Positions 2,256-38,107 of a stretch of 64,000 bases of DNA are shown here, piece after piece. Every line of letters starts with the position of its first letter. Positions within the stretch are counted from its first letter, which is position 1. This DNA comes from Candidatus Collierbacteria bacterium (GTDB lineage Bacteria > Patescibacteriota > Microgenomatia > UBA1400 > JACPES01), in NCBI GenBank assembly GCA_016183365.1, contig JACPES010000003.1, positions 473,154-537,153 of the forward strand, in the 5' to 3' direction. A program made the translations under genes and the position numbers. The notes beneath the pieces were generated by a model, which saw only the letters and a list, made by a program, of their open reading frames with translations, was not told the DNA's origin and searched no databases.

Positions 2256-3303
2256 AAGAAACGAAATTCTGGCTCCGTATACGTATTTTAGGATAGGCGG
2301 TCCGGCCGATTATTTTGTAACGGTTAAATCTTCAAAAGAGCTCAAGGAGGTTATTTTGTCGGCCGAAGCTGCAAAGGTGCCCTGGTTTATTTTGGGCGGC
2401 GGCAGCAATATTTTGGTGGGAGATTTTGGATTTAGGGGGTTAGTAATTAAGAATGACGCGGAATCAGCTAATGTTGAGGGCAAGGAATTGACGGCGGAAA
2501 GCGGAATAAAGATGTCAAAATTGGCGGCATTTTCCATTAAGAACGGATTGGCTGGTTTGGAAGTATTCATGTCGGTGCCGGGGACGTTAGGCGGAGCGGT
2601 TTTTAATAATTCTCATTTCAGGCCGGAAAAAAATGAATTTATCGGAAATTTGGTTAAAGAGGCGGAGGTACTATTGATGAATGGAGAGAACCGCCGGCTG
2701 CCATCGGCCGCTCGCATCAGCTCCACTGGGGCGGAGCCGGAATCCACCCCAGTGCGGTCTGTCGCTTCGCGTCCGGCGTGCCGGCAAGTCTTGGATTGGC
2801 ATAGGGAGATCGTTAATAGAGATTGGTTCCGGTTTGGGTATGATTATTCCCGTCTTCACGATGAAACAGGGGTGGTTTTGAACGTAAGATTCAGGTTGAA
2901 AAAATCTGACCCCGAAAAACTCAAGGCCAGATCGTTAGAATTACTCAAGCAGAGAAATAGCCGTCAGCCAATAGGTCAATTAAGCTGTGGGTGCATGTTC
3001 AAAAACCCTGACGGAATGTCTGCCGGACAATTAATTGATGATGCGGGGATGAAAGGTAAAAGAGTGGGCGGAGCCGTGGTTTCCGATAAACATGCCAATT
3101 TTATCGTTAACACCGGCGGGGCTAAAGCAGAAGAAGTGCTAAAATTGATGGATTGGGTAAAAAGAGCCGTCAAAACCAAATCCGGAATTGACTTGGAACC
3201 GGAGATATTTAGAGTGGGAGAGTTTAGTAAAGGCGATCCGAATGATCCAAATCAACATCCGAATGTTCCGAATAGAGAATTCGAATTATTCGGATGTCAT
3301 TAG
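2209..3303 (+). CDS. murB: UDP-N-acetylenolpyruvoylglucosamine reductase (carries in-frame GC-rich insert and C-terminal read-through into a repeat)
   Basis: FAD-binding N-terminus APYTYFRIGGPADYF...FILGGGSNILV and C-terminal MurB domain. True start may lie downstream of 2209, which overlaps murC by 47 nt. Confidence 0.8.
   Translation: MKFILNLSKAWEKRIKRNEILAPYTYFRIGGPADYFVTVKSSKELKEVILSAEAAKVPWFILGGGSNILVGDFGFRGLVIKNDAESANVEGKELTAESGIKMSKLAAFSIKNGLAGLEVFMSVPGTLGGAVFNNSHFRPEKNEFIGNLVKEAEVLLMNGENRRLPSAARISSTGAEPESTPVRSVASRPACRQVLDWHREIVNRDWFRFGYDYSRLHDETGVVLNVRFRLKKSDPEKLKARSLELLKQRNSRQPIGQLSCGCMFKNPDGMSAGQLIDDAGMKGKRVGGAVVSDKHANFIVNTGGAKAEEVLKLMDWVKRAVKTKSGIDLEPEIFRVGEFSKGDPNDPNQHPNVPNREFELFGCH
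2690..2815 (+). repeat. GC-rich structured insertion inside murB, translated in frame
   Basis: Composition shift to GC-rich. Nested palindromes CACTGGGGCGGAGCCGGAATCCACCCCAGTG and GCCGGC elements. Encodes NRRLPSAARISSTGAEPESTPVRSVASRPACRQVLDWH, absent from canonical MurB. Confidence 0.55.
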
Positions 3304-3317
3304 TAGATTGGGATCGC
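3233..3317 (+). repeat. CGAATG-family element (B type) with terminal inverted repeats GCGATCC...GGATCGC; murB C-terminus reads into it
   Basis: GCGATCCGAATGATCCAAATCAACATCCGAATGTTCCGAATAGAGAATTCGAATTATTCGGATGTCATTAGTAGATTGGGATCGC. Confidence 0.75.
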
Positions 3318-3324
3318 TTAAATT

Positions 3325-4581
3325 ATGTCATCATTTATTATAAATGGCGGCAAGCCTTTAATCGGCGCAATAACGGTTTCCGGTAACAAAAACGCGGTTT
3401 TGCCGGCTATGGCCGCGGCTTTATTAACCGATAAGGAAGTAATTCTGGAAAATGTGCCTCATATCAAAGATGTTGAAACTATGGGGGTACTCTTAAACGG
3501 TTTGGGGGCTAAGTTGACTGGTTTAGATACTCCGGTTATAAAAATTACGGCTAAAGATTTAAAACCTAAAGAGCCGGATGAAAAGTTAGTGGCCGATTTA
3601 AGAGCTTCAGTTTTATTGCTGGGTCCGCTTTTATCGAGGTTAGGCCGAACGGTTATCCGTCATCCCGGAGGCGATATCATCGGCCGCCGATCGATAGATG
3701 AACATTTAAAAGCTTTGGAGAAATTGGGAGTAAAAATTGAGATAGAGGGAATTTTAAATAAACTTTCCGTCAAGAAATTACACGGAGCGGATATCCATTT
3801 GACGGAAGCTTCGGTGACGGCGACGGAAAACATTATGATGGCTGCGGTTTTGGCTGAAGGCGAAACCCAAATTACCAATGCCGCCGCCGAACCTCACGTT
3901 CAATGTTTAGGGAGATTACTGAATAAAATGGGGGCCAAGATTGAAGGCGTGGGAACCAGCAGAATTAGTATTCAGGGAGTCAACAGTTTGAGGGGGTGCA
4001 GCCACAAAGTCAGAACCGATCATATCGAGGTTGGGACTTGGGCGATAATGGCGGCAGTGACCGGAGGGGAAATAAACGTTCATGGCGTGGTCAAAGAAGA
4101 TTTGCTGCCGATGAAAGCGATTTTTGAGCCGATGGGAATAGTTATAAAAGAGTTCGATTCATCCGCAAAATTTTCCAGAGGAACTTTAACGGCTTATCCG
4201 GCGGTCAAAACAAATATTTGGCCCGGATTCCCGACGGATTTGATGAGTCCGATGATAGTTTTAGCGACACAGTGCCGGGGAATGACTTTAGCCCATGACT
4301 GGATGTATGAAGGCAGGATGTTTTTTGTGGATAGATTGATTAAAATGGGGGCTAATATAATTGTGGCTGACCCGCATAGGATTATTGTTAACGGTCCGAC
4401 TCCGTTTTATCCAAGACACAGTTCTAGTCCGGATATTCGAGCCGGAGTCGCTTTAGTAATTGCCTCTTTGGCGGCAAACGGAGAGTCCGTAATTGATATG
4501 GCCGAGATCATTGACAGAGGGTATGAAAATTTGGAACAAAGATTAACAGGGTTGGGAGCCGATATCAAACGGATTTCATGA
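3325..4581 (+). CDS. murA: UDP-N-acetylglucosamine 1-carboxyvinyltransferase
   Basis: EPT-fold repeats, N-terminus IINGGKPLIGAITVSGNKNAVLPAMAAALL, 418 aa. Confidence 0.85.
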   Translation: MSSFIINGGKPLIGAITVSGNKNAVLPAMAAALLTDKEVILENVPHIKDVETMGVLLNGLGAKLTGLDTPVIKITAKDLKPKEPDEKLVADLRASVLLLGPLLSRLGRTVIRHPGGDIIGRRSIDEHLKALEKLGVKIEIEGILNKLSVKKLHGADIHLTEASVTATENIMMAAVLAEGETQITNAAAEPHVQCLGRLLNKMGAKIEGVGTSRISIQGVNSLRGCSHKVRTDHIEVGTWAIMAAVTGGEINVHGVVKEDLLPMKAIFEPMGIVIKEFDSSAKFSRGTLTAYPAVKTNIWPGFPTDLMSPMIVLATQCRGMTLAHDWMYEGRMFFVDRLIKMGANIIVADPHRIIVNGPTPFYPRHSSSPDIRAGVALVIASLAANGESVIDMAEIIDRGYENLEQRLTGLGADIKRIS

Positions 4582-4955
4582 ACTTTTTAAAATCATTGGG
4601 GTTTGCTTTAGAAGGATTGCGGGAAATGATTTGGGGGCACAAGAATTTCCGCCTCCAAATTATGATTGGTTTGCTGACGGTTGCCGCCGGGTTTGTCTTT
4701 CAGCTGAATTTTTCGGAATGGATGGCGTTGATATTAATCAGCGGGTTGGTTTTAGTAACGGAGATGGCAAATTCTGCTATTGAAGCAATGGTGGATTTGA
4801 TCACCAAAGAACGTAAGGAGGAAGCCAAAAAAGCTAAGGATATTGCCGCCGGAATGGTACTATTTGTTTCAGGATTATCAATAGTAATCGGAATATTTAT
4901 TTTCGGTCCACATCTTATGAAGCTTTTAACCATTCAGCCATTCCAACCATTTTAA
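4578..4955 (+). CDS. dgkA: diacylglycerol/undecaprenol kinase family membrane protein
   Basis: 125 aa, 3 TM helices, conserved E..ANSAIE..VD motif of prokaryotic DAGK. ATGA overlap with murA. Confidence 0.65.
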   Translation: MNFLKSLGFALEGLREMIWGHKNFRLQIMIGLLTVAAGFVFQLNFSEWMALILISGLVLVTEMANSAIEAMVDLITKERKEEAKKAKDIAAGMVLFVSGLSIVIGIFIFGPHLMKLLTIQPFQPF

Positions 4956-4967
4956 CCATTATTTTAT

Positions 4968-6766: not shown

Positions 6767-8341
6767 TTGCCAACTTCGCAAAAAGTAAAGCGCGAAACTC
6801 ATGTTGTATATAATGAGGATATGACTCCGTGGAAGAGGTTTTGTCGGGATTGGAAAGGAAAAAGGGTTTTAATTATGGGACTGGGACTTCAGGGCAGAGG
6901 AATTGGGGATGCAAAGTTGTTTTGCGAGGCTGGTTCACATGTAACTGTGACTGATTTAAAAAGTGAATCTCAACTTCAACTTGCGCTTGAACAATTAAAT
7001 GGTCTGTCGATTAGATTTGTGCTCGGGAAACATGAAGAGGAAGATTTTTGGACACACGACATGGTGCTCCAGAATCCTGACGTGCCGTCCAACTCTCCGT
7101 TTTTAGAAGTAGCCAAAAAAGCCGGAATACCGGTTAAAATGGACTCATCTCTTTTTGCCGTCTACTATCCGCTGCCGATAATCGGGATTACCGGGACGCG
7201 GGGGAAGACGACCACTACGATGATGATTTATGAGGTTTTGAAAAAATTATACAAAGGTAGCGTGTATTTGGGAGGGAATATACCGGATAAGGCGACGCTG
7301 GAGTTATTAAAAGAAATTAAAGAGCCTCAGAAGTATGCTTCCTTTGGCTCGTGGTCTACGTCCACGCACCCAAAGAGCGCAACTTTGGGGTTCGGGCGTA
7401 CCGGCGATTTTTTCCGGAGAAAAAAATCGGGTCCGTCCGAAAAAGGCATTGTGGTGTTGGAGTTATCCAGTTGGGAATTACAGGGTTGGCGCGATGAAAA
7501 AATTTCGCCCAATATTTCGGTGTTTACCAATTTCTATCAGGACCATTTGAATCGTTATGCGTCAATGGACGAGTATTTTCAGGATAAATTGGCGATTCTT
7601 CGATATCAGAAAAAAACTGACTGGGCAATTCTAAACGCCGACAATCCATGGACCAAAAAGGCAGCAACGGAAATAAATTCGCGTATCAAATGGTTTTCTT
7701 CCAAAGATTTGCCACAGGAGGCTTTACTTCATGTTCCGGGTGAACACAATCGCGCAAATGCGGCAGCTGCATTGGCAGTAGTTTCTGTGATTGGCGTGGG
7801 GGGAAAAGAAGGATTAGAAATATTGAAAAGATTTAGAGGTGTACCGTTCCGATTGGAAACGATCGCAACGATTGACGGAGTTGAATATATAAACGACACC
7901 ACTTCGACTACTCCGGCGGCCGGAATCGCGGCTCTGCGGGCGATGACAAAACCGGTGGTATTAATTACCGGTGGCTCGAGCAAAAAATTGGATTTAAAAC
8001 CGTTGGCGGAAGAGATCGTTGAAAGTTATAGGAAACACCGGGTTAAGCGGGTGGTTTTGTTAAGGGGAGAAGGGACGGATGAACTAATTGTTTATCTGAA
8101 GGCTTGTGAAGTTTCGTCCTGCAGAGCTGGATCCCGTTCCGCGGGACAAACTTCATACGGGAAACTGATTAACGGGGTTTATGGCGATTTTAAAGTTGCC
8201 GTAACCAGGGCCAGAGATTTGGCAATTTCAGGAGACGCGGTGTTATTGTCGCCGGGTTGCGCCAGCTTTTCCATGTTTAAAAACGAGTTTGACAGAGGCG
8301 AACAATTTAACCAAATCATCCGTAAATGGCAAAAAAAATAA
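6767..8341 (+). CDS. murD: UDP-N-acetylmuramoylalanine--D-glutamate ligase with a ~37-aa in-frame repeat-element insertion
   Basis: KRVLIMGLGLQGRG N-terminus, P-loop GITGTRGKTTTTMMI, Mur ligase C domain. Real start may be the ATG near 6821. Element A copy at ~7335-7447. Confidence 0.8.
   Translation: MPTSQKVKRETHVVYNEDMTPWKRFCRDWKGKRVLIMGLGLQGRGIGDAKLFCEAGSHVTVTDLKSESQLQLALEQLNGLSIRFVLGKHEEEDFWTHDMVLQNPDVPSNSPFLEVAKKAGIPVKMDSSLFAVYYPLPIIGITGTRGKTTTTMMIYEVLKKLYKGSVYLGGNIPDKATLELLKEIKEPQKYASFGSWSTSTHPKSATLGFGRTGDFFRRKKSGPSEKGIVVLELSSWELQGWRDEKISPNISVFTNFYQDHLNRYASMDEYFQDKLAILRYQKKTDWAILNADNPWTKKAATEINSRIKWFSSKDLPQEALLHVPGEHNRANAAAALAVVSVIGVGGKEGLEILKRFRGVPFRLETIATIDGVEYINDTTSTTPAAGIAALRAMTKPVVLITGGSSKKLDLKPLAEEIVESYRKHRVKRVVLLRGEGTDELIVYLKACEVSSCRAGSRSAGQTSYGKLINGVYGDFKVAVTRARDLAISGDAVLLSPGCASFSMFKNEFDRGEQFNQIIRKWQKK
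7335..7447 (+). repeat. Element A copy 1 (two-hairpin ~110-bp repeat), in frame inside murD
   Basis: GGCTCGTGGTCTACGTCCACGC...GGTTCGGGCGTACCGGCGATTTTTTCCGGAGAAAAAAATCGGGTCCGTCCGAAAA. Translated as FGSWSTSTHPKSATLGFGRTGDFFRRKKSGPSEKG. Confidence 0.8.
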
Positions 8342-9420
8342 CTCAAGTCAACCGGGAAAGGGTCAGAAGTTTACAGATTTTAGTTTTACTTTTTTTACTG
8401 TTAGGATTGGGAATGATAATGGTTTACGACTCTTCGGTAGCCGAGGCTCAAAGATTATTCGGTGATAAATTCTATTTTGTTAAACGCCATTTAATTTGGG
8501 TGACGTTGGGAATTGGCTTGATGACTGTGGTTTCTAAAATTCCGACTTCATTTATTAAAAAGTTCAGCCCGCACCTATTTGGTTTAAGCGCGGTATTACT
8601 GGCGGGGGTTTTAATTCCCGGGTTGGGGTCGGCGGCCCAGGGCGCTCGCCGCTGGTTTTACTTAGGAAAATCAATTTATTTTCAACCGTCTGAATTGGTT
8701 AAATTGTCCACGGTACTTTATTTCGCGGTGTGGTTAAAAAATAAACAACGGCTTTCTCACCCCTTGATTTTATTGGGAGTTATAATTTTTTTATTAATCC
8801 TTCAGCCTGATTTCGGGACGGCCATAATTATAACCGCCACCGGTTTTTTGATGATGTTTGTTTCCGGTCTGCCCTATAAAACTATTTTTACTTTAGTTCT
8901 GATTTGCACGCTGGCAGGATTGGGCTTATCCGTCAGTTCGTCCTATAGGCTAGAGAGAATAAAAACTTTTTTAGATCCCACCAAAGATCCTTACGGAAGT
9001 TCCTACCATATTAATCAGGCGTTAATTGCTTTTGGATCTGGAGGATGGTGGGGGTTGGGGTTGGGCAGATCCCGCCAAAAATTCGAATATTTGCCGGAAG
9101 CGTCTACAGATTCAATATTCGCGGTGGCCGGGGAAGAGTTGGGATTGGTAGGAGTAACGGTAATAATCTTAATTTTTATATTGTTGTACTGGCAGTTTTT
9201 TAGAGTGGCATTGAGGGAGAATGACGGCTACCGCAGGTTATTGGCTGTGGGTTTAAGCGGCTGGTTGTCTATTCAAACTTTGGTAAACTTAGGATCATTG
9301 ACGGCTTTAATGCCGATGACCGGCGTCCCATTGCCATTTATTTCATATGGAGGTTCAAGCTTAATAATTCAAATGCTGACATTGGGGATATTGCTTAGAA
9401 TAAACTTAACCCAGAAATGA
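8326..9420 (+). CDS. ftsW: SEDS family peptidoglycan glycosyltransferase FtsW
   Basis: 10-TM SEDS protein (QPDFGTAIII, ALMPMTGVPLPFISYGGSS) between murD and murG. Confidence 0.75.
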   Translation: MAKKITQVNRERVRSLQILVLLFLLLGLGMIMVYDSSVAEAQRLFGDKFYFVKRHLIWVTLGIGLMTVVSKIPTSFIKKFSPHLFGLSAVLLAGVLIPGLGSAAQGARRWFYLGKSIYFQPSELVKLSTVLYFAVWLKNKQRLSHPLILLGVIIFLLILQPDFGTAIIITATGFLMMFVSGLPYKTIFTLVLICTLAGLGLSVSSSYRLERIKTFLDPTKDPYGSSYHINQALIAFGSGGWWGLGLGRSRQKFEYLPEASTDSIFAVAGEELGLVGVTVIILIFILLYWQFFRVALRENDGYRRLLAVGLSGWLSIQTLVNLGSLTALMPMTGVPLPFISYGGSSLIIQMLTLGILLRINLTQK

Positions 9421-10526
9421 AGAACAAAAAACAAAGAACAAAAAACAAAGAACAAAAAACGTTTCTTCTGACCGGAACGCATATCACTCCGGCGGTGGCT
9501 TTAACGCAGGAAATATTTTCCCGTTTCCCGGGGGTCAGGGTAGTTTATATCGGCCGGAAAAAAAATAAGAACGGAGAGAAGTCGGTGGAAAAAGAGGAGA
9601 TAACCAGAATAGGGGCTGAATTTATCCCAATTTCGTTTGCCAAACTTAACCGATTTATATCCATTTCAATTTTAACGGAGTTTCTTAAAATTCCCGGCGG
9701 GTTGATCCGGGGCTTAACCTTGGTTAAGCGAATAAAACCTGATGTAGTGGTGTCTTTTGGAGGTTATACGTCTATTCCGATTATTCTCGCCGCTAAAATA
9801 TCAGGCGTCCCGATTATTGTCCATGAGCAAACTTTAGTCTGGGGGCTGGCCAATAGAATAGCCAGGGGGCTGGCCGATTATTCCGCCATTTCCTGGGCTA
9901 AAACCGCTGATAAAAAGTCAGTTTTAACCGGAAATCCCATACCCGAGGAAATTATTTTGGCCAAAAATAAAAAAATCCAACCAAACATTTTATTTATTAC
10001 CGGCGGCAGTCAGGGATCTCAAACGATTAATCGTTTAGTTGAACCGATATTACCAGTTTTGACCAAATATTTTTTTGTTTATCATCAAACCGGAAGTTTA
10101 GATTCCCACTCCGCCAGCTGGCGGAGTGGAATGACGGAATCGCGGAAAATGAAAAATTACGTTTCTGCGGAGTGGTTTCCGACTCCAATCGTCGCCGAAA
10201 TTTTCCAAAAATCAAAGATTGTGGTCAGTCGGTCAGGAGCTAATACAATTACTTATCTATCCTATTTTGGAATTCCTTCAATATTAATCCCCTTGCCGAT
10301 TTCCGGCGGAGGAGAACAATCGGTCAATGCTAATTTGTTAGCCGAAACCGGTTTGGCCACAGTATTAAATCAGGACGGCTTAACCTCCGAAAAATTATTG
10401 GAGGAGATTCTACGGATTAATAAAAATTATGATAGGATTTGGAAATCGGGAGCTGAAAATGCCGGGCGGCTGATTATTTCCGACTCGGCCGCAAAATTAC
10501 TGGATCTGGTTGCCAAAGTCCTATGA
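9417..10526 (+). CDS. murG: undecaprenyldiphospho-muramoylpentapeptide beta-N-acetylglucosaminyltransferase
   Basis: LLTGTHITPAVAL (GGTGGH-like) and ITGGSQGSQTIN motifs. N-terminus encoded by an AACAAAGAACAAAAAAC microsatellite (KQRTKNKEQK). Confidence 0.8.
   Translation: MKNKKQRTKNKEQKTFLLTGTHITPAVALTQEIFSRFPGVRVVYIGRKKNKNGEKSVEKEEITRIGAEFIPISFAKLNRFISISILTEFLKIPGGLIRGLTLVKRIKPDVVVSFGGYTSIPIILAAKISGVPIIVHEQTLVWGLANRIARGLADYSAISWAKTADKKSVLTGNPIPEEIILAKNKKIQPNILFITGGSQGSQTINRLVEPILPVLTKYFFVYHQTGSLDSHSASWRSGMTESRKMKNYVSAEWFPTPIVAEIFQKSKIVVSRSGANTITYLSYFGIPSILIPLPISGGGEQSVNANLLAETGLATVLNQDGLTSEKLLEEILRINKNYDRIWKSGAENAGRLIISDSAAKLLDLVAKVL
9421..9455 (+). repeat. in-frame microsatellite (AACAAAGAACAAAAAAC)n at the murG N-terminus
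   Basis: Direct tandem copies visible. Confidence 0.7.
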
Positions 10527-12526: not shown

Positions 12527-12650
12527 GCGATACGAATGGCACGGATAAGCATACGAATGATACGAATATTTGTGTAATTCGTATACGATTCGCCAGCCCG
12601 CCTGGACTTCGTCCATGCGAAGTGGTATCGCTTTTTCGTGGATTAGCATC
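12527..12650 (+). repeat. CGAATG-family element (C type) in the ftsA-ftsZ spacer
   Basis: GCGATACGAATGGCACGGATAAGCATACGAATGATACGAATATTTGTGTAATTCGTATACGATTCGCCAGCCCGCCTGGACTTCGTCCATGCGAAGTGGTATCGC. Confidence 0.7.
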
Positions 12651-13815: not shown

Positions 13816-13875
13816 GGCGATCCCAATCTAGGAATGCATCCGAATGATCCGAATAATGTAGAATGTGCGAGTGAA
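13816..13875 (+). repeat. CGAATG-family element, partial (left half), ftsZ-downstream
   Basis: GGGCGATCCCAATCTAGGAATGCATCCGAATGATCCGAATAATGTAGAATGTGCG. Confidence 0.55.
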
Positions 13876-14274
13876 GAATTTGGTTCATGCAAAATTATCT
13901 TACGATCTTACCGGAATATTTTTTGCATTCACAACGAGTTGGGAAGATATTGTCGGGAAAAGCAATACGGCGATCGCTTAGAATTGTTATTGCGGGAAGC
14001 TAAATTTGAGTTTTCCCGCGCAGTAGACTTGTCATCATTCGGCCACTCATTAGTTAAAGGTAATCGGGCAGATTTTGTTGTGGATAATAAGATAGTTGTT
14101 GATTTGAAAACAAAGCCGGTAATTACCAAAGAAGATTATAATCAAATGCAACGTTATTTAAAAGGATCCTGGCTTGAATTGGGTTTAATTGTAAATTTCA
14201 GGAATAAGTATCTTAAACCGAAGAGAGTGCTTAATATCGAAAGGTTTCATTCGGATAATTCTGATCGCTTATGA
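13834..14274 (+). CDS. GxxExxY family protein (PD-(D/E)xK-like); N-terminal ~25 aa read from a repeat element
   Basis: C-terminal two-thirds match the GxxExxY family pattern (RADFVVDNKIVVDLKTK ... LGLIVNFRNKYLKPKRV). The 5' end overlaps a CGAATG-family repeat. Confidence 0.45.
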   Translation: MHPNDPNNVECASEEFGSCKIILRSYRNIFCIHNELGRYCREKQYGDRLELLLREAKFEFSRAVDLSSFGHSLVKGNRADFVVDNKIVVDLKTKPVITKEDYNQMQRYLKGSWLELGLIVNFRNKYLKPKRVLNIERFHSDNSDRL

Positions 14275-26011: not shown

Positions 26012-26902
26012 ATGTTAATTAATAATATTTCAATTAGCGTGGTTGTTACGGTAAAAAATGATGAAGCTGGGGTAAAAAGGCTGCTTGAAGATTTGGATAA
26101 GCAAACGGTAAAGCCGGATGAGGTTATTATTGTTAGGTCAGAGGATTACGGTAATTGTACACGTGGTAGGGGCAGAAATATCGGGATCAGGATGGCGAGA
26201 AATGAATTTATCGCGGTGACTGACGCGGGGTGCAGGCCGAGGAGAGATTGGGTGGAGAGAATAACTGCTGGACTGTATAAAGGCCAGGCCTTCGAGTACA
26301 AAGGCCAGGCCTTATTTGTAGTGGCGGGATGGTATCGAGCGGTGGCAGAAACGCCTTGGCAAAAGGTTTTTTTGCCGTATTTAGTGCCGACAATCAAGAA
26401 GGATAAGAAGGAAAAGAGAGGGAAAGGTAAAACATTCTTACCGGCCAGCCGGTCGATTGCTTTTACCAAAAAAGCCTGGGAATTGGTCGGAGGCTATCCG
26501 GAAGAGCCGGTTTCCGGCGGAGAAGATTTGAAATTTGCCGATAAACTCTGCAATCATACCGGGATTAATATAATTTATTCGCCAAAAGCTGTAGTTGATT
26601 GGCCGGTACCGTCGACTTTAACGGAATTTATTAAAGATATGGTTAAACATACCAGGGGGAATTTTGAGGCCGGATATTGGCCGCATATCGTTCGAAATTT
26701 AAATGTGGTAGCAAGGTGGATGATAATGGTGATTTGGCCGTGGTTGATACCGGTGTATTTGATATGGGGGATTACCCGTCTTCATCAAAAAACGGCGAAG
26801 CGATGGCGGATTAGGGACATTGCGATTAGGGTGGTGGCCGACGCGGCGGTATTTTACGGAACGATAATCGGTATAATTGATGGGTGGGTTATAAGAAAAT
26901 AG
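26012..26902 (+). CDS. GT2-family glycosyltransferase with C-terminal TM segments
   Basis: ISVVVTVKNDEAG...VTDAGCRP (GT-A fold DxD region). Hosts one in-frame palindromic insert (KGQAFEYKGQAL). Confidence 0.6.
   Translation: MLINNISISVVVTVKNDEAGVKRLLEDLDKQTVKPDEVIIVRSEDYGNCTRGRGRNIGIRMARNEFIAVTDAGCRPRRDWVERITAGLYKGQAFEYKGQALFVVAGWYRAVAETPWQKVFLPYLVPTIKKDKKEKRGKGKTFLPASRSIAFTKKAWELVGGYPEEPVSGGEDLKFADKLCNHTGINIIYSPKAVVDWPVPSTLTEFIKDMVKHTRGNFEAGYWPHIVRNLNVVARWMIMVIWPWLIPVYLIWGITRLHQKTAKRWRIRDIAIRVVADAAVFYGTIIGIIDGWVIRK
26280..26312 (+). repeat. Element D (CGAGTACA-loop subtype), in frame in the GT2 gene
   Basis: AAGGCCAGGCCTT-CGAGTAC-AAAGGCCAGGCCTT, encoding KGQAFEYKGQAL. Confidence 0.8.
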
Positions 26903-28092: not shown

Positions 28093-29957
28093 GGGTTCTA
28101 TTTTTGTCTCCGGTGCATCCGCTGTTAACTCCGGGAAATCCTTTGCCAAAGTGGCAGATGCAAATGAGTTGGGTTAGAGGTTTAGAGAAGGCAGGGGCGG
28201 AGATAAAAGTGGTCAAGTATACGCCAGGGGACGGGGTTAGGCTTAATTGGGCTGATCGGGTTTGGTGGAATTTGAGGGTGATTAGCGAGATTCAAAAAGC
28301 TAGATTGCCATGGTTCGCTAAGGGCGGGCCTAGCAATGACAGGGGAAAATTTAACTTGATTGTTTATTCGCTGGGGGCAGATGTGCTGTTGCCGCAGACG
28401 GTAAAGTTAATTAAATGGTTGACGGGAACGCCATTGGTGATTTTGTCAGGAGTATCACCTATTCTCAACGGTAATCCGCGGGAAAAGGCTACCGCGAAAT
28501 TGGTGGATTTGGCGGCGGTGAATGACGAAAATCATGCCGAAGAATGGATAAAATTAGGGGCTAAAAAAGCAGTGATTCTGCCGATTTCAGCGATGGATCC
28601 GGAATTGCATTGGAATAGAGGCAAGGAGGATCAGGGGGATAAGAAAGATATTGACGTTTTATTTGTTGGGACTTTGACGGAAGAGCGGAAAAGATTTCTA
28701 AACAATTTACGAAAATTGTTGCCGAAATCGATTAATTTATTGATTAAAGAGTTTGGGTGGGAAGAGGAATACGCTGGATTGATGAGCCGGGCCAAAATTG
28801 CGCTTAATCCGATAAGGTCGGAAATGGCGGGAGGGGCTAATTTAAGAATGTTTGAAATTCCGGCGTTTGGGGCTTTGGAATTGGCGAGTAACGGGAAAAA
28901 GGAATGGTTAATGCCGGGAAAGGAAATGCTGGTGTATAAGGATGCGGAAGAGGCGGTGGGGTTGATTGCTAAATATTTAAAAGATGATAAAAGACGGTTA
29001 GAGATGATAAATAGAGGGATGAGAAGAGTAAAAAGAGAACATACATTTAAGGAGAGAGCAGAAAAGTTGATGGAGTTTATCAAGATGGACTTTAATAGGG
29101 CCTTGCCTTCTGGTACAAAGGCCAGGCTTTTAGTTGATGTGTCAGTTTGTATTGTTAATTATAAAGCAGATAAGGAATTAGAGCGGTGTTTGGCGTCGAT
29201 TTCTCAATTTACCAAAGGAATAAATTTTGAAGTAATCGTGATTGATAATTCGTCAGACAATAGGTGGTATTCAGGTGGGAACAATCTGGCATTAGCGCGG
29301 GCAAAAGGAAGATATGTTTTATTTTTAAATCCGGATTGTTATTTAACTGAAAACGCTTTGGCAAAAATGGTTGGGTGGATGGATAAACATCCCGAGGTTG
29401 GAACTGGTGAGCCGAGGCAGGTTTATGACGATGGTGAAATCGCGCCGACAGGTTCACTTTTGCCGGTATGGTGGGTGGATTTAGTGGAATTAACCGAGTT
29501 AAGCCGGTGGTTCGGGAGCGTGGGGAGAAAGGGCAGGTTGGGTAGACTTGGTAAAATCAGTGAGGTTAGGCAAGAGAATTTAGACAGGCGGAAGAATTGG
29601 CAGACGGAGGTAGTCTCCGGGGCGGCAATGATTGTCAGAAAGAGGATTTTGGACGAGATCGGCGGTTTTGATGAGAAACTTAAACTTTATTACACTGATG
29701 TTGATTTGTGCAGGCGGATTTTGGTGGCGGATTATCAGGTTTGGCATGTGGGGGAGTTTAAACTTGGCCATTCCACCGGAAGAAGCACAGATAAAATAAA
29801 ATGGGATGATCTGTATGATATTTATGCCGGGGATGGGGGAAATTACTATTCTAAATGGGGGAAAGAGTTTGGTGGAAAAATATTATTTTGTGGGATGAAG
29901 GTGAATAAAGCAATATTAAGAATAGGGCATGCGTTGATGACAAAGAAAGTGTTATGA
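28089..29957 (+). CDS. bifunctional glycosyltransferase (CgeB-like GT N-domain plus GT2 C-domain)
   Basis: N-half resembles CgeB/Glyco_trans_1_2 (DVLFVGTL...RKRFL). C-half is GT-A (CIVNYKADKELERCLASI...VIVIDNSSDN...LFLNPDCYL). Confidence 0.55.
   Translation: MRVLFLSPVHPLLTPGNPLPKWQMQMSWVRGLEKAGAEIKVVKYTPGDGVRLNWADRVWWNLRVISEIQKARLPWFAKGGPSNDRGKFNLIVYSLGADVLLPQTVKLIKWLTGTPLVILSGVSPILNGNPREKATAKLVDLAAVNDENHAEEWIKLGAKKAVILPISAMDPELHWNRGKEDQGDKKDIDVLFVGTLTEERKRFLNNLRKLLPKSINLLIKEFGWEEEYAGLMSRAKIALNPIRSEMAGGANLRMFEIPAFGALELASNGKKEWLMPGKEMLVYKDAEEAVGLIAKYLKDDKRRLEMINRGMRRVKREHTFKERAEKLMEFIKMDFNRALPSGTKARLLVDVSVCIVNYKADKELERCLASISQFTKGINFEVIVIDNSSDNRWYSGGNNLALARAKGRYVLFLNPDCYLTENALAKMVGWMDKHPEVGTGEPRQVYDDGEIAPTGSLLPVWWVDLVELTELSRWFGSVGRKGRLGRLGKISEVRQENLDRRKNWQTEVVSGAAMIVRKRILDEIGGFDEKLKLYYTDVDLCRRILVADYQVWHVGEFKLGHSTGRSTDKIKWDDLYDIYAGDGGNYYSKWGKEFGGKILFCGMKVNKAILRIGHALMTKKVL
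29097..29130 (+). repeat. Element D (degenerate CTGGTACA-loop subtype) in the bifunctional GT gene
   Basis: GGGCCTTGCCTT-CTGGTAC-AAAGGCCAGGCTTT. Confidence 0.55.
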
Positions 29958-30712
29958 AATTGACTGCAATAGTTTTGATTGGGCAAAATGACAAGATGAA
30001 AGCTAAACAGGCAATAGATTCTTTGTCGTTTGCGGATGAAATAATTGTAGTTAAGGAAAAATTTCCGATTAATGATTTTGGCGAAGTCAGGAATAGGGCT
30101 TTGGATAGGGCTAAAGGAGAATGGGTGTTGTTTGTGGATAGTGATGAAAAAGTGACGCAACAACTCGCTAGAGAAATCAAGCGAGTTATCAAATTTTCAA
30201 GCCAAGGTTATTTTTTACAGCGACAAGATAAATTTCTTGGTAGGTGGTTGAAGCATGGGGAGACGGCCAGTGTCAAATTGTTGAGATTAGCTAAAAAAAA
30301 TGCCGGCCGATGGGTTAGGCCGGTGCATGAAGTATGGAAGGTTAAGGGCGAAACAGGGGAATTGAAGAATCCCCTATTGCATTATTCTCATGAAGCGGTC
30401 GAAGGGATGGTTGAGAAATTAGACAGATATAGCGGGATGGAGGCGGGGTATAAAAATAGACAAATGGTTAGATGGTTAGAATGGTTAAAATGGCTGAACT
30501 GTATTCGATTAATATCGTTTCCTGTAGGCAAATTCGTCCTTAACTATTTTTTTCGTCTGGGGTTTTTGGACGGGATGGAGGGATTTATCCACGCCGGAAT
30601 GATGAGCGGGCATTCGTTTTTGGTACGAGCGAAGCTCTTAAAGCGGTACGAATCTACCTGCCAGATTTCGCATGGACGAAGTCCAGATGGGCGGGCGAAT
30701 TCATCCGAATGA
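29954..30712 (+). CDS. GT2-family glycosyltransferase (LPS-core-type)
   Basis: LTAIVLIGQNDK...VLFVDSDEKV (DxD). C-terminal 18 aa read through a CGAATG-family repeat. Confidence 0.6.
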   Translation: MKLTAIVLIGQNDKMKAKQAIDSLSFADEIIVVKEKFPINDFGEVRNRALDRAKGEWVLFVDSDEKVTQQLAREIKRVIKFSSQGYFLQRQDKFLGRWLKHGETASVKLLRLAKKNAGRWVRPVHEVWKVKGETGELKNPLLHYSHEAVEGMVEKLDRYSGMEAGYKNRQMVRWLEWLKWLNCIRLISFPVGKFVLNYFFRLGFLDGMEGFIHAGMMSGHSFLVRAKLLKRYESTCQISHGRSPDGRANSSE

Positions 30713-30725
30713 TACGAATAAATAA
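30630..30725 (-). repeat. CGAATG-family element (C type) in inverted orientation, spanning the GT2 3' end and the ligase 5' end
   Basis: Reverse complement ATTCGTATCATTCGGATGAATTCGCCCGCCCATCTGGACTTCGTCCATGCGAAATCTG matches 12570-12630. Confidence 0.7.
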
Positions 30726-31914
30726 ATTGATGGGATTACTATTTTTAGTCGGGTGGGTGGCGGGGCAAATTACCAGATGGCATGGGAGTTTTCCGGTGAC
30801 GATTCTTGATATGGCGGTGGGGGGAATAGTGATTACGGGAGGGATAAAAGGAGTAAAGAGGATTAAAGGGGTAGGTTTGATATTAATAGCGTCGTGGATT
30901 TTAAGTTTGAGATTATTTTCTTTGGAGCAATCTGTTTCGGGAGGGCTTTATCTTTTAAGGTTTTTGGGGTATTTGTGGATCATTGCCAATGCTGATAAAT
31001 TGTTGGCTCCGGTTAAGAAACTGATTGTACCGGCTTTTTGGATTTTCGTGATTTTTGCTTGGATTCAATACTTGTTTTTGCCGGATACCAGATTTTTGCT
31101 TCAATACGGATGGGATGAGCATTATTATCGGATGATCGGAACGGTGCTGGATCCGAATTATTTGGGGGTGATGTTGGGGATGGTGGGGATATATTTAATA
31201 TACAAATATACAAATAGACAAATAGACAAATGGGGGAAAATATTATTGGCGTTTACTTTTGGCGGATTGGCGCTGACTTATTCTAGAGCGAGTTGGATGG
31301 CGGTTTTAGTATCTGGTATCTGGTATATGGTATATGGGTTGAGCCCCAGCACTACGCTTACTTGCTCCCGTGGTTTACATCCACGCGTCGCAAGAGCGCG
31401 AGTGCGGGGTTCGGGCGTACCAACTGATTTTTCTGGAGAAAAATCAGGGTTCGTCCGAAGGGGATTAGGGATATTGGGCATACTGGGTGTAGTTGCAATA
31501 CTCGGAATATGGTTCATGGCGCCAAAACCCGGTGGGGAAGGAATTAATTTATGGAGGACCAGTTCGATTGAGCAGAGAATTGAAAGTTGGCGGGAGGGAA
31601 TAAATGTTTGGCGGGAACATCCGTGGGTTGGAGTGGGATTTAATAACTATGCAGCGGCTAGAGATAAAGTACCAGAAGAAAGAAATCATGCTGAGAACGC
31701 GCCGAGCAGTAGCTGGATTTTGCTATTGGCGACGACGGGGATTATAGGAATGGGTTGGTTAGCGATGGTTGGATGGTTGGCAGTCAGAAATTCAAATAGA
31801 TTGCTGGTGGGGATTTTGGTGATGATCGGAATTCACTCAATTTTGAATAATACCATTTTTTATCCACCAATTTTGGGTTTATTAGCTATGATTAAGGTTG
31901 CCAACGCAGAGTAA
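30709..31914 (+). CDS. O-antigen ligase/polymerase-like (Wzy_C domain) membrane protein with in-frame Element A insertion
   Basis: Multi-TM protein with Wzy_C hallmark LALTYSRASWMAVLV and a periplasmic loop. Confidence 0.55.
   Translation: MIRINKLMGLLFLVGWVAGQITRWHGSFPVTILDMAVGGIVITGGIKGVKRIKGVGLILIASWILSLRLFSLEQSVSGGLYLLRFLGYLWIIANADKLLAPVKKLIVPAFWIFVIFAWIQYLFLPDTRFLLQYGWDEHYYRMIGTVLDPNYLGVMLGMVGIYLIYKYTNRQIDKWGKILLAFTFGGLALTYSRASWMAVLVSGIWYMVYGLSPSTTLTCSRGLHPRVARARVRGSGVPTDFSGEKSGFVRRGLGILGILGVVAILGIWFMAPKPGGEGINLWRTSSIEQRIESWREGINVWREHPWVGVGFNNYAAARDKVPEERNHAENAPSSSWILLLATTGIIGMGWLAMVGWLAVRNSNRLLVGILVMIGIHSILNNTIFYPPILGLLAMIKVANAE
31345..31462 (+). repeat. Element A copy 3 (subfamily 2), in frame inside the O-antigen-ligase-like gene
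   Basis: AGCACTACGCTTAC...CGCGAGTGCGGGGTTCGGGCGTACCAACTGATTTTTCTGGAGAAAAATCAGGGTTCGTCCGAAG. Translated as ...RVRGSGVPTDFSGEKSGFVRRG. Confidence 0.75.
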
Positions 31915-34484: not shown

Positions 34485-34519
34485 CCCGAGTCTAACTCGG
34501 TTTATCCGAGGGAGATGAG

Positions 34520-34545
34520 GAGGGAAGTCTGACTTCCCCATTTTA
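34520..34545 (+). terminator. rho-independent terminator-like hairpin after tRNA-Gly
   Basis: GGGAAGTC-T-GACTTCCC stem followed by ATTTT. Confidence 0.4.
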
Positions 34546-34756
34546 CTGTATATAATTTATAAAAACGTTAGACGTTTCAATTTTTATAAAAGATCGTAAG
34601 CATTGGAATAAGTTAGTAGAAAAACTTCGGGCAGAAGGAAGTGAATCGGCGACAAAATGTCACGGTTTGAAAATGTTGGTTGTTGACGGAAAAGCGTGTA
34701 GATTGGCAATGCTATAGCATAGTCAATCTACAATAAATTAATCTAAAGATAGATAT

Positions 34757-35368: not shown

Positions 35369-35453
35369 AATGAAAGTAGGTACTTTCGCTGACGAAACTA
35401 ACTACTTTCGGATAGTAAATAATACGAAGGTAAATGTCAAGAGGGGAAATTTG

Positions 35454-35527
35454 CGGGGCCGACGGGATTCGAACCCGCGACCTCCTGCGTGACAGGCAGG
35501 CGCTCTAACCAACTGAGCTACGACCCC
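35454..35527 (-). tRNA. tRNA-Asp (anticodon GUC)
   Basis: Reverse complement GGGGTCGTAGCTCAGTTGGTTAGAGCGCCTGCCTGTCACGCAGGAGGTCGCGGGTTCGAATCCCGTCGGCCCCG. Anticodon loop CTGTCAC. Confidence 0.85.
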
Positions 35528-35571
35528 ACATTTACAGTTTATGATACCATTTTTGGGAGGAGAAGAAGCTT

Positions 35572-37374
35572 ATGGTAGCGGTTTCTAACAATCAATCTAT
35601 CGCCAAAATGCTGTTTGAGGTGGCGGCGGTTTTGGAAGTGACCGGAGGCGACCGATTCAGAATTCGGGCTTATCGGGAAGCGGCCAACTCGATCGAGACT
35701 TATCCGGTCGAAGTCCGTGATTTGTGGGAGCACAGGAATTTAGGAGATGTGGCCGGAGTAGGAAAAGCTATGGCCGGTTATTTGGATGAATTTTTTAGGA
35801 CCGGAAAGGTAAAACATTTTGATTCTATTAAAAAGAAAGTCCCGGCCGGAATGTTTCCTTTGCTTAATGTGAGTGAGATCGGGCCTAAGACGGCTTTTGT
35901 CCTTTCTAAAGAGCTGGGGTTAGTTAAGGCCCAAATTGCGATTGATAAGCTTAAAAGAGCTGCTACGGACGGTGAGATAGCCAAGATTGAAGGCTTCGGG
36001 GAAGAATCTCAAGCAAAGATTTTATCCGCTATCAAGGAAGCCGAGTCGAGAGAAAATAAGATACTTTTACCTGTGGCCCAAGAGTTGGCAGATAAAGTTA
36101 TTGGCTATCTCCAAAAACAGCCCGGGATTATTAAAGTCGAGGCTTTGGGTAGTTTGAGAAGAAAATCTGCTTTAGTCGGAGATATAGATATAGGCGTTGC
36201 CGTTTCAAACCCGAAAGCAATCGCGGAAAGTTTTATCAAATTTCCTGAATTTATCAAGATATTGGCAACCGGAGACAAAGTTTGCCGGGCGATTCACCGC
36301 ACCGGACGGCAAGTTGACTTAAAAATTGAGCCGTTGGAAAGTTTTGGTTCTATGTTGCAACATTTTACGGGGAGTAAGGAACATAATATTGCTTTGAGGG
36401 AGTACGCGCTGAAAAAAGGTTACTCGTTGTCGGAGCATGGGGTTAGAGAACAGAAAGCAGAGAACAGAGAACAGGAATCAGGAAACAAGAAACAGGGAAT
36501 AAGAAGGTTCGGAACGGAAGAAGAATTTTATAAAGCCCTCGGCATGCCGTGGATTCCGCCGGAATTGCGGGAAAATCGCGGAGAGATTGAAGTCGGCTTA
36601 TCAGGCAAACTTCCAAAGTTGCTGGAATTATTAGATATCAAAGGCGATTTTCATACCCATTCTGATTTTGATATTGAAACCAGCCATGATACCGGAGCTT
36701 CAGGTTTAATTGATCTGGTAAATACTGCTAAAAGATTGGGATACGAATACATCGCTGTATCTGATCACAATCCGTCTACTTCAAATCACAATCATAATCA
36801 AATAATAGACCTTATAAAGCGGAGAAATGATTATATTGATAAATTTATTTCATCTCATGAAATGGATGTGAAAATAAAAATATTTAAATCCCTCGAAATA
36901 GATATATCCGGCGATGGATCAATCGCTATTCCAGATTCGGCATTGGAGCTTTTGGATTTTGGCATAATTTCAATTCACAGTCAGTTTGTTGCCGACGAGA
37001 GCAAGCAAACGGCCAGAATTTTAAGAGCTCTTTCACATCCTAAAGTCAAAATACTGGGCCATCCGACTGGCAGGCAGCTCTTAAAACGGAACGGAATCAA
37101 TTGCGATTGGGATAAAATATTTGATTTTTGCTCCCAAAAAAATATTTGGTTGGAAGCTAACGGAAATCCGTTTAGAATGGATTTGCCGGATCAATTAATC
37201 CAGAAGGCAAAGAATTTTGGGGTTAAATTTACTTTGGGTACAGACAGCCATAATTTCAGTCAGATGGAGTATATGCCGTCCGGAGTTTCGTTGGCAAGAA
37301 GGGGATGGCTTGAGAAGAAAGACGTGATAAACTGTTTGGAATATAATGAAGTAAAAGAAAAGTTAAAAGGCTGA
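35572..37374 (+). CDS. polX: DNA polymerase X family with C-terminal PHP phosphoesterase domain
   Basis: HhH motifs, nucleotidyltransferase motif GSLRRKSALVGDIDIGV, PHP motif FHTHSDFD. A 20-aa Q/E/K/N-rich microsatellite insert sits between the domains. Confidence 0.8.
   Translation: MVAVSNNQSIAKMLFEVAAVLEVTGGDRFRIRAYREAANSIETYPVEVRDLWEHRNLGDVAGVGKAMAGYLDEFFRTGKVKHFDSIKKKVPAGMFPLLNVSEIGPKTAFVLSKELGLVKAQIAIDKLKRAATDGEIAKIEGFGEESQAKILSAIKEAESRENKILLPVAQELADKVIGYLQKQPGIIKVEALGSLRRKSALVGDIDIGVAVSNPKAIAESFIKFPEFIKILATGDKVCRAIHRTGRQVDLKIEPLESFGSMLQHFTGSKEHNIALREYALKKGYSLSEHGVREQKAENREQESGNKKQGIRRFGTEEEFYKALGMPWIPPELRENRGEIEVGLSGKLPKLLELLDIKGDFHTHSDFDIETSHDTGASGLIDLVNTAKRLGYEYIAVSDHNPSTSNHNHNQIIDLIKRRNDYIDKFISSHEMDVKIKIFKSLEIDISGDGSIAIPDSALELLDFGIISIHSQFVADESKQTARILRALSHPKVKILGHPTGRQLLKRNGINCDWDKIFDFCSQKNIWLEANGNPFRMDLPDQLIQKAKNFGVKFTLGTDSHNFSQMEYMPSGVSLARRGWLEKKDVINCLEYNEVKEKLKG
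36440..36500 (+). repeat. in-frame GAACAGA/GAAACAAGAAACAG purine-rich repeat tract in polX
   Basis: GAACAGAAAGCAGAGAACAGAGAACAGGAATCAGGAAACAAGAAACAGGG. Confidence 0.65.
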
Positions 37375-37420
37375 AAGGTTAAAAAGGTTGAAAAGGTTAG
37401 AAAGGTTGAAAGAGAGGCGG
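37370..37420 (+). repeat. intergenic (AAAGGTTGAAA)n tract between polX and lemA; a related copy lies at 59375-59405
   Basis: GGCTGAAAGGTTAAAAAGGTTGAAAAGGTTAGAAAGGTTGAAAGAG. Confidence 0.6.
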
Positions 37421-37430
37421 TGATAATTTT

Positions 37431-38018
37431 ATGAATTTAACAGTAATTTTAATAGCCTTAGCAGTAATAGCTTTAGGCTACATAGTTTCCACATATAATT
37501 CGTTTCAGACGATTAAAACCAGAATTAAAGCCAGCATTCAGGAGATTGGCAATCAGTTGAAAAGACAGACGGATTTAATTCCAAATCTGGAAACCAGTGT
37601 TAAGGGATACCTGAAACACGAGAAGTCGATTTTTGACAAACTGACTGATGCCCGGAAATCCGTGTCGGAAGCGGTGAAAACCGGTAATTTAAATAACGCC
37701 CAAGACGCGGCCGGAAAGCTGACCCAATTGATTCCGGCATTGCAGGTTTTGGTTGAGAGTAACCCGGAACTTAAGGCGAATACGACTGTCGCCAGTTTGA
37801 TGGATGAACTAAGGGATACTTCCGACAAAGTGATGTATTCTAGACGGACATTAATTGATTTAACGGCTGATTACAACCAAATGCTGGTGACTTTCCCCTC
37901 CAATATGGTTGGTAATTTATTCGGGATGAAGCAAGAAAAGGGCTTGGAGATGCCGGAAAGCGGAGAATTTTTGAAGGTGTCGGCAGATGAGACAAAGAGC
38001 CCGAAAGTGGAACTGTAA
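37431..38018 (+). CDS. lemA: LemA family protein
   Basis: N-terminal TM helix plus YNSFQTIKTRIKASIQEIGNQLKRQTDLIPNL, the LemA signature. Confidence 0.8.
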   Translation: MNLTVILIALAVIALGYIVSTYNSFQTIKTRIKASIQEIGNQLKRQTDLIPNLETSVKGYLKHEKSIFDKLTDARKSVSEAVKTGNLNNAQDAAGKLTQLIPALQVLVESNPELKANTTVASLMDELRDTSDKVMYSRRTLIDLTADYNQMLVTFPSNMVGNLFGMKQEKGLEMPESGEFLKVSADETKSPKVEL

Positions 38019-38020
38019 TA

Positions 38021-38107
38021 GCGATCCGAATGATTCTAATAATCATCCGAATGTTCCGAATAGAAGAAATTCGGATAATTCGAATGTCATTCGTGGATTT
38101 GGATCGC
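38021..38107 (+). repeat. CGAATG-family element (B type) in the lemA-htpX spacer
   Basis: GCGATCCGAATGATTCTAATAATCATCCGAATGTTCCGAATAGAAGAAATTCGGATAATTCGAATGTCATTCGTGGATTTGGATCGC, co-linear with the 3233-3317 copy. Confidence 0.8.

Follow-up and report, generated by a model that had tools for sequence, protein, structure and literature searches.

Results

Repeat Loci in the Window

The window analysed here is a stretch of 64,000 nucleotides (64 kb) from contig JACPES010000003.1 of a Candidatus Collierbacteria bacterium, in which a dispersed repeat element accompanies the genes. Six loci, and no others in the window, bear arrays of (A/T)T(C/A)CGAAT units. These are the murB-murA spacer (copy A1), the spacer between lemA and an M48 peptidase gene (A2), the 3' side of ftsA (C1), the ftsZ-ileS spacer, which holds a long copy with a gene of the GxxExxY nuclease family, the end of a GT2 gene (C2) and the interior of a GT4 glycosyltransferase gene (G). 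A preliminary description, made from the sequence alone, had proposed such a family, and all six loci were present at, or a few bases from, the positions that it gave.

In a complete element the order is GCGAY, four direct units of 9–12 nt, a short loop, four inverted units and RTCGC. The unit core is (A/T)T(C/A)CGAAT, the unit spacing is 9–12 nt and pairs of units are in phase at 21 nt. Two unit types exist side by side in the window: A1, A2 and the long copy are built of ATCCGAAT, and C1, C2 and G of ATACGAAT. The complete palindromes, which are A1, A2 and C1, fold into long imperfect hairpins (z = −5.8, −4.0 and −4.5, respectively).

ATMCGAATG was observed 12 times in the window with 1.5 expected, and none of 100 shuffles reached 12. 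The six loci account for 13 of the 16 AT[CA]CGAAT octamers present in the 64 kb. A profile trained on 174 arms, all from other genomes and with the window sequence not in the training set, matched eight arms at the six loci (E of 4 × 10−10 to 1 × 10−5) and gave no further match below E = 0.07 in the rest of the 64 kb. In the Rfam analysis of the window, the gathering score was reached by tRNAs alone and there was no match for the repeat element; at permissive thresholds nothing relevant was identified over A1 (E ≤ 10) or four other loci (E ≤ 1). The Rfam analysis of loci outside the window identified rRNA, tRNAs and one cobalamin riboswitch, and nothing for the repeat element.

The Full-Length Element and Its Nuclease Gene

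The full-length element (452 bp, 13817–14268, forward strand) is comprised of a left arm (13817–13855), the nuclease gene and a shortened right arm (14248–14268). The left arm begins at 13817, immediately 3' of the ftsZ stop codon, and the right arm, CATTCGGATAATTCTGATCGC, ends at 14268, 3 bases 5' of the ileS ATG. What had been described as a partial copy at 13816–13875 is in fact the left arm of this element. The gene, on the forward strand, runs from a GTG at 13871 to a stop codon at 14272–14274, and the annotated open reading frame (ORF; 13834–14274) matches PF13366 (1.7 × 10−18, 67.5 bits; cut-off 22) and TIGR04256 (5.7 × 10−18, 65.4 bits; cut-off 35). The earlier statement that no transposase is visible in the window thus missed a full-length member encoding a GxxExxY PD-(D/E)XK nuclease. 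This member represents a candidate autonomous partner, albeit in a defective copy, and its protein is not itself a recognised transposase.

An equivalent element is present in the equivalent place in L116 (~95% nucleotide identity), where the ORF (P0002) is intact and the right arm has all four units. In the window copy, by comparison, a T7 run is reduced to T6 at 13919–13924, which shifts the frame, the right arm is short by 21 nt (two units), and the start codon is GTG where L116 has ATG. Because of the frameshift, the annotated GxxExxY protein starts inside the left arm; the proposal that the element supplies the N-terminus of this protein is accurate for the annotated start, but only through the frameshift. 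The frameshifted ORF is on record from 12 contigs and is therefore not peculiar to the assembly of the window.

Short Copies and Solo Arms

A1 (3233–3317, 85 nt, no strand) is a complete short element in the murB-murA spacer with the ends GCGAT/ATCGC. Its left (3233–3274) and right (3278–3317) arms matched the profile at E = 8.5 × 10−10 and 8 × 10−8, respectively, and the previously noted termini GCGATCC...GGATCGC and internal palindrome (3277–3301) were present. The murB reading frame is 25 codons longer than the ...GEF* end seen in the relatives L207, L205 and L206, which confirms the reported extension of murB by the repeat and corrects its length from 21 amino acids. A2 (38021–38107, 87 nt, no strand) is a complete short element between lemA (stop codon 38016–38018) and the M48 peptidase gene (ATG at 38116). 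A1 and A2 are 86% identical end to end, including the arm-to-arm junction, and 76–79% identical to the arm of the long copy in the window.

C1 (12527–12652, 126 nt, no strand), previously given as ending at 12650, is a complete short element of ATACGAAT units immediately 3' of the ftsA stop codon. Its right arm is broken by a nested GC-rich module at ~12593–12630. C2, described earlier as an inverted C-type copy at 30630–30725, is indeed related to C1; it is, however, a solo arm (30643–30720, forward strand; profile matches at 30642–30657 and 30696–30720), broken by a 38-nt GC-rich module at 30658–30695 that is inverted relative to that of C1. The 38-nt module occupies the identical arm position in C2 and the C1 right arm. 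The two copies have in common a block of 34 nt at 91% identity (12588–12621 versus inverted 30667–30700), which includes the shared sequence reported for the C-type copies, CTGGACTTCGTCCATGCGAA, found at 12602–12621 and, inverted, at 30667–30686. C2 forms the last 23 codons and the stop codon (30710–30712) of the GT2 ORF, so that this gene is lengthened as had been claimed, by 23 codons lying in the arm and not by 18 amino acids. C2 also contributes the ATG (30709) at which a Wzy-like ORF was called to begin. Short GC-rich hairpins were additionally observed nested in arms or loops of L020, L022, L067, L077, L099 and L113, and their sequences differ by genome.

G (25180–25221, forward strand; E = 8 × 10−7) is a degenerate solo left arm of the ATACGAAT type, present in frame in the GT4 glycosyltransferase gene (24828–25982), where an in-frame tract had been placed at 25165–25215. 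It is translated as RDTNDTNRHANDANK. G is an insertion relative to most GT4 homologues and is common to P0122 and P0124, and a clean arm is present at the matching GT4 site in L202. Arms within ORFs were seen only in the hydrophilic frame of the left-arm orientation (DTN/DPN). In L116, IleS contains an in-frame solo arm of the CGAAT family, translated as ESDTNLRIHPNDTNRP. At this IleS loop (window ~16440–16520, L116 7046–7085), the window carries a different insert, of TTTACGA units.

Distribution across Patescibacteria

GTDB species genomes were scanned with the 19-mer CATMCGAATGWTMCGAATA, and at least 112 stretches matched. Among the matches listed, 74 loci carry Patescibacteria-type labels (Parcubacteria, Saccharibacteria, and Doudna-, Staskawicz-, Roizman-, Magasanik-, Moran-, Lipton-, Sungii-, Zambryskii-, Jackson-, Nomura-, Taylor- and Falkowbacteria), a further 17 come from third-party metagenome-assembled genomes (MAGs) labelled Gammaproteobacteria, a label that could not be verified, and 7 are unclassified; full arms surround the 19-mer in 86 of these 98 candidate phyla radiation (CPR), unclassified or Gammaproteobacteria-MAG loci. 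The loci labelled as other phyla were, in 12 of 14 listed cases, a bare 19-mer without arms, about the chance level, and are therefore chance matches. The preliminary description had allowed that the copies might be unique to this contig; the same arms were present across many Patescibacteria lineages and in 23S rRNA genes.

The fetched loci contained 269 arms, compared to 18 in shuffles, and the termini and unit order are kept across many genomes. The unit itself varies by genome (CCGAAT, ACGAAT, GCGAAT, ACTAAT, CCGGAT, ACGAAC and others), and the left and right unit types agree within an element (chi-square 126, p = 3 × 10−26). The consensus hairpin of 28 aligned sequences shows covariation at the variable unit position, CG with AU. 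The full-length form measures ~450–480 bp, with two inverted arms of four units each and one gene for a nuclease of 125–140 amino acids. The short form (70–126 bp) has both arms without the gene.

The 23S rRNA gene of L032 (4,355 nt) holds six short ORF-less elements. The first three copies, which are those covered by the Rfam alignment, lie in terminal-hairpin-loop insertions at ~161–169, 277–291 and 583/584 of the Rfam LSU model. L073 has a related 23S gene that cleanly lacks two of the six elements. A survey of CPR rRNA insertions reported many short non-intron inserts at sites of the intervening sequence (IVS) type, and mentions neither this repeat nor PDDEXK_3 (PMC11270868). The L073 23S gene (reverse strand) has palindromes of other tandem units (GCGGAT; AAATAGAA) opposite L032 2975–3075 and 4040–4130, which suggests several element families of one design. 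Further large insertions that do not belong to the family are present in the L032 gene, e.g., at 3140–3400, and 272 nt at model position ~229.

Among 2.9 million viral contigs there was a single match to the repeat pattern, and carriage by phage was rejected on this result. No description of the repeat sequence was found in the literature searched, which left out most subscription journals.

Association of the Arms with the GxxExxY Nuclease

The loops of 153 left-then-right arm pairs were bimodal in length, with 92 shorter than 70 nt, without an ORF, and 51 of 300–480 nt. A GxxExxY gene was present in all 51 of the long loops. No other cargo was identified between the arms of the 153 pairs, and larger intervals represented host genes between separate arms. 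A second sample was picked by protein only, from a metagenome scan, and yielded 71 genes for which both flanks were available. Of these, 41 had three or more canonical units on each side, and those genes without canonical units that were inspected (L137, L167, L172, L192, L197 and L199) had arms of variant units. The nuclease gene and its upstream neighbour were co-oriented in 66 of 68 cases; both neighbours were co-oriented in 43 and both opposed in none. This orientation bias indicates read-through expression and selection on the ORF.

In an alignment of 40 homologues, D68, K80 and K82 (P0003 numbering) were invariant, and the acidic and lysine motif residues were kept. The AlphaFold model (pLDDT 88.7) showed a minimal PD-(D/E)XK fold. 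Foldseek against the PDB gave weak, generic PD-(D/E)XK matches (lambda exonuclease, Cas4, Hjc and splicing endonuclease) with E ≥ 2.5 × 10−3, and a sequence search identified no relatives with a solved structure. None of the PADLOC models matched P0002 or P0003, and their membership of a known anti-phage defence system was rejected on this basis; the Bacteroides homologue had one match, PDC-M36A (E = 0.0025). No mobile role was described in the literature retrieved for GxxExxY, PF13366 and TIGR04256, a search that likewise left out most subscription journals. The CPR nuclease profile matches 6,554 clusters at 50% identity. Many of the GxxExxY database proteins P0361–P0405 are 270–900 amino acids long with the domain at one end or internal, and these long proteins are probably gene calls that run through an arm into the neighbouring host gene.

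Non-CPR GxxExxY genes were drawn from a plasmid collection. These genes, too, sit tightly between host genes that are co-oriented and unrelated, and inverted tandem-unit arms flank most of them. In Bacteroides finegoldii (L210), the arms at 328–357 and 770–799 (90% identity) are built of CAGAGGAC units with the ends TTCAC...GTGAA, and radA lies on one side. Arms of CACAGAGA units were present in Bernardetia (L211; 363–390 and 786–813, 86%), and of CGCGAAGG units in the fabD-fabG spacer of Sphingomonas (L213; 362–386 and 774–798, 92%). In Treponema (L209; 331–358 and 764–791, 71%) the units were not resolved. The Gemmatirosa element (L214; 280–308 and 764–792, 76%) adjoins an ORF-less perfect palindrome of 3 + 3 units, and Gemmatirosa also has units near-identical to the Bacteroides CAGAGGAC. 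In both genera, ORF-less palindromes or solo arms of the CAGAGGAC unit were seen 3' of stop codons; the non-CPR records read also include L215–L219. The Bacteroides arm is multi-copy: complete ORF-less palindromes lie in the gmd-fcl and dnaN-exonuclease spacers, and solo arms lie immediately 3' of the lpxA and lptB stop codons.

Gain, Loss and Insertion Sites

The murB-murA site is empty, reading TAATTATG, in L207 (MurA 96% identical), L205 (89%) and L206 (82%). Where the window has C1, the ftsA-ftsZ site is empty in L205, L206 and L116 (flanks of 95% identity in the last), and the ftsZ-ileS site has no long element in L205 and L206. With identical copies in independent assemblies and empty sites in related genomes, the copies are insertion polymorphisms and do not resolve into the misassembly or ordinary low-complexity spacer that the preliminary description had also allowed for. 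At its murB-murA junction, L204 (MurA 90%) has an 87-nt insert (~9915–10000) that is unrelated and contains GCATGAAA four times.

Target-site duplications (TSDs) of 2–4 nt at offsets of 0–4 were counted for 54 elements, and the counts equalled those of shuffled pairings, the flanks being merely A/T-rich; similarly, no TSD was observed in the comparisons of empty and filled sites that were inspected. Where a gene reads into an element, its stop codon lies within −1 to +3 nt of the element's end in 50 of 130 cases (~40%).

Near-identical short copies, loops included, are present at different loci of one genome in L005 and L042. Together with the common junction of A1 and A2, this likeness indicates that the short form multiplies as a short form. 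On a 2.2-kb contig (L166), three elements, two of them short and one long, have identical arms.

Discussion

A Probable Family of Small Selfish Elements

The six loci are best explained, at a probability of about 70%, as copies, in three states of decay, of one family of selfish DNA elements that has spread through Patescibacteria. The family is a bounded element with long, short and solo forms, the long form of which is strictly tied to one nuclease family. Its gain or loss is recent, occurs at many unrelated sites without a TSD, and is tolerated in rRNA loops and protein loops.

The GxxExxY nuclease may be the agent of this mobility, an assignment that we make tentatively. It would bind the repeated units of its own arms; such recognition is inferred from the tandem design, which is kept across phyla while the unit sequence follows the protein lineage, a pattern that RNA pairing alone hardly explains. 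Cleavage by the nuclease could then take place at targets, at the ends of the element or where the hairpin or cruciform has its base, and host repair or ligation would finish the move. The ORF would be expressed by read-through from the host operon, and pairing of the arms as a long RNA hairpin may render insertions in rRNA and operons tolerable, as for the 23S IVS cut by RNase III. In the short form the gene would have been deleted, and this form would multiply as such, presumably dependent on the nuclease in trans. Solo arms would be remnants.

It is conceivable, if slightly short of probable, that GxxExxY proteins in general are the nucleases of an unrecognised, multi-phylum class of miniature selfish elements. 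With the same reserve, the class might be characterised by a length of ~450 bp, inverted arms, lineage-specific tandem units of 8–12 nt, the absence of a TSD and expression by host read-through. Its members could leave ORF-less palindromes and solo arms in gene junctions, rRNA hairpin loops and protein loops, although we would not yet bet on it. Some of the short CPR rRNA intervening sequences might then be such remnants, a proposal that we hold just as cautiously.

Several points weigh against the selfish-element interpretation. The sole long copy in the window carries a frameshift and lacks two units in one of its arms, and the window has no nuclease copy to match C1, C2 and G, the copies of the ATACGAAT type. 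Flanking repeats are direct and not inverted in L212 (Fusobacteria) and L203 (Persicobacter). The presence or absence of copies in relatives could partly reflect precise deletion and not insertion. The case for a role of the nuclease in mobility is one of association, to our knowledge no strand-transfer chemistry has been described for a lone PD-(D/E)XK enzyme of 125 amino acids, and the absence of a TSD fits no standard transposition pathway. The organism labels of records were taken as written and gene contexts were from simple ORF calls. As loci were chosen by arm pattern or by protein, the ratios of short to long copies are biased.

Alternative Explanations

An alternative that we regard as unlikely is that the nuclease-carrying form alone moves, and that short and solo copies are scars of gene loss by deletion between the arms. 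The identical short and long arms in L166 fit in situ deletion equally well, and decay is visibly ongoing in the window, where the long copy has its 21-nt arm deletion and frameshift and the solo arms have decayed further. However, A1 and A2, at different loci, share one junction and are closer to each other than to the long-copy arm (86% versus 76–79%), and independent deletions would differ in their breakpoints. The L005 and L042 copies at different loci, loops included, and the six ORF-less copies in one 23S rRNA gene also argue against it.

It is improbable that the palindromes are RNA elements serving the host in operon transcripts, such as mRNA stabilisers, terminators or processing sites. 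The strong hairpin folds would suit such a role, as would the location of copies between co-oriented genes (48 of 81) and near stop codons. Copies were, however, also found between divergent genes (e.g., L097 and L026), in ORFs and in 23S rRNA. In 49 elements between co-oriented genes, the sense and antisense strands folded equally (−34.8 versus −34.5 kcal/mol, p = 0.75), with 98 versus 90 G-U pairs and thus no strand bias, which speaks against a strand-specific RNA. No terminator-like site coincides with any copy in the window, and with the lack of strand bias this speaks against intrinsic terminators; the suggestion of a terminator or REP-like function therefore finds no support in its first part, while the likeness to repeats that flank a nuclease gene is the better analogy. 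The junctions are, moreover, empty in relatives with MurA identities of 82–96% and in L116 (~95% nucleotide identity), and no Rfam family was matched.

Still less credible is the possibility that the unit arrays are bound by some host protein of a nucleoid, regulatory or uptake-like kind, by which GxxExxY is merely regulated. While the unit spacing of 9–12 nt, the phasing of pairs at 21 nt and the conservation of the unit sequence over a wide phylogenetic distance would be expected of such sites, the units are almost confined to arms (13 of 16 octamers in the window) and not dispersed like uptake sequences. The ends of the arms are always GCGAY/RTCGC, the arms occur in inverted pairs, the units change jointly on both arms and are wholly different around GxxExxY in other phyla, and the sites are polymorphic between close relatives.

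An origin as assembly artefacts, or as independent low-complexity or slippage sequence without common descent, is scarcely tenable: unrelated tandem-unit inserts at like sites (the L204 murB-murA junction and L073 23S) make a slippage-like origin conceivable, but A1 is identical in three independent Logan assemblies, the frameshifted ORF is known from 12 contigs, the external profile matched at E = 10−9 to 10−10, and the termini and unit order are kept across genomes.

Three known types of array were considered and rejected. Integron attC sites have R''/L''...L'/R' boxes with a GTTRRRY core and form arrays beside an integrase, whereas the ends here are GCGAY/RTCGC and the copies are scattered among housekeeping genes; Pfam analysis of ten ORFs adjoining window copies identified no integrase, and the arm-flanked ORFs match only PF13366. 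DNA uptake sequences were ruled out by unit sequence and distribution, and TIGR-Tas arrays because the repeat units are conserved, without variable spacers.

Comparison with Known Systems

The closest working analogy is that of repetitive extragenic palindromes (REPs) and the REP-associated tyrosine transposases (RAYTs), and the present family may be viewed as a variant with a different enzyme family and repeat design. REPs are short extragenic palindromes present in many copies without a TSD, and RAYTs are IS200/IS605-like. The gene for this presumed mobilising nuclease is flanked by two inverted copies of the repeat, and repeat and enzyme co-vary by lineage. In both systems a dispersed palindrome is present, as inverted copies, on either side of a nuclease gene, and there is no TSD. 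The differences are that the enzyme here is a PD-(D/E)XK nuclease of 125 amino acids (the ORF matches only PF13366 and TIGR04256) and not an HUH/Y1 transposase, that the ~40-nt arms have four tandem units and a GCGAY end in place of a 20–40-nt REP with a GTAG-type head, and that the nuclease-bearing form is multi-copy and polymorphic, with copies also in rRNA and ORFs.

Prokaryotic transposable elements of the miniature inverted-repeat type (MITEs) share their ends with a longer coding element (PMC10969869). The present family resembles MITEs such as Correia/NEMIS, ERIC, BOX and RUP in being small, non-coding and multi-copy, with terminal inverted repeats, in operon spacers and with an occasional ORF fusion. 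A1, A2 and C1 (85–126 nt) and the 92 short elements sampled are within the size and type of a MITE (< ~600 bp, non-coding, multi-copy), and the terminal inverted repeats are GCGAY...RTCGC plus the ~40-nt inverted arms. Unlike MITEs, the family has no TSD, builds its arms from tandem units, and spans a superphylum and not a genus or family; its longer form, which has the same ends, encodes a PD-(D/E)XK nuclease and no recognised transposase. The earlier classification as a MITE-like, non-autonomous family is therefore apt as regards a multi-copy, inverted-repeat, mostly non-coding element that fills spacers and enters gene ends, but this is not a classical MITE.

Rickettsia palindromic elements (RPEs) are in-frame gene insertions in a reduced genome that are tolerated as hydrophilic peptides (PMC10969869). 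The in-frame arms in GT4, at the GT2 and murB ends and in L116 IleS are comparable. The two differ in that sequence and host are unrelated, most copies here are intergenic, and a nuclease-carrying form exists here. We know of no coding partner of RPEs.

The IVSs of 23S rRNA are hairpin inserts in terminal helix loops, some of which carry a small ORF in the loop (PMC11270868). The L032 copies are similarly located in terminal loops, including a helix-25-type site, and are sporadic among relatives. The present family is, however, found mainly outside rRNA (as are all window copies), and its ORF belongs to PF13366 and not to 23S_rRNA_IVP (PF05635). Classical 23S IVSs are cut out by RNase III.

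Free-standing homing endonuclease genes, including that of the PD-(D/E)XK enzyme I-Ssp6803I, have one cognate site and are without repeated-unit inverted arms or ORF-less derivatives. As in the present element, the nuclease gene is very small, lies between host genes that are co-oriented and unrelated, and is variably present in close relatives. The present family, unlike homing genes, uses many unrelated insertion sites.

Implications

If correct, this interpretation would provide a first functional context for a large, many-phylum and often multi-copy family of small nucleases of "unknown function", and would account for the repeated appearance of insertions in spacers, in rRNA loops and, in frame, in proteins of the highly reduced genomes of Patescibacteria. 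It would also join classical 23S rRNA intervening sequences to repeats of the REP/MITE type. Should the nuclease really be what moves the element, this would represent a new enzymatic route to DNA mobility on a very small scale (~450 bp, 125 amino acids). The insertions distort gene calls, as seen in the longer murB, the false Wzy-like and GxxExxY starts and apparent fusion proteins in databases.

Other Repeats in the Window

Several further repeats were observed in the window. A paired palindrome, AAGGCCNGGCCTT, has seven copies, all inside ORFs (25409–25453, 25522–25566, 25841–25885, 26269–26313, 29086–29130, 40046–40090 and 41404–41448). It is represented in the GT4 protein and its homologues by KGPAL- or KGQAL-type peptides, and several copies also score as terminator-like hairpins inside genes. 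A family of 122-nt repeats inside genes (7323–7444, 15616–15737, 31342–31463 and 39439–39504) accounts for in-frame insertions of 40 amino acids in MurD (residues 187–226) and 28 in IleS (residues 453–480), both of which are absent from the L205 and L116 orthologues. Tracts of the AACAAAAAAC type are located at 9409–9469, 14939–14971, 16871–16903, 36449–36502 and 61343–61375, and that at 14939–14971 coincides with a KNKKQKTK insertion in IleS relative to L116. A tandem-unit repeat, ATGGTTAGAATGGTTAAAATGG, is present in both orientations, at 4924–4959 and 42227–42251 on the reverse strand and at 30449–30498 on the forward strand.

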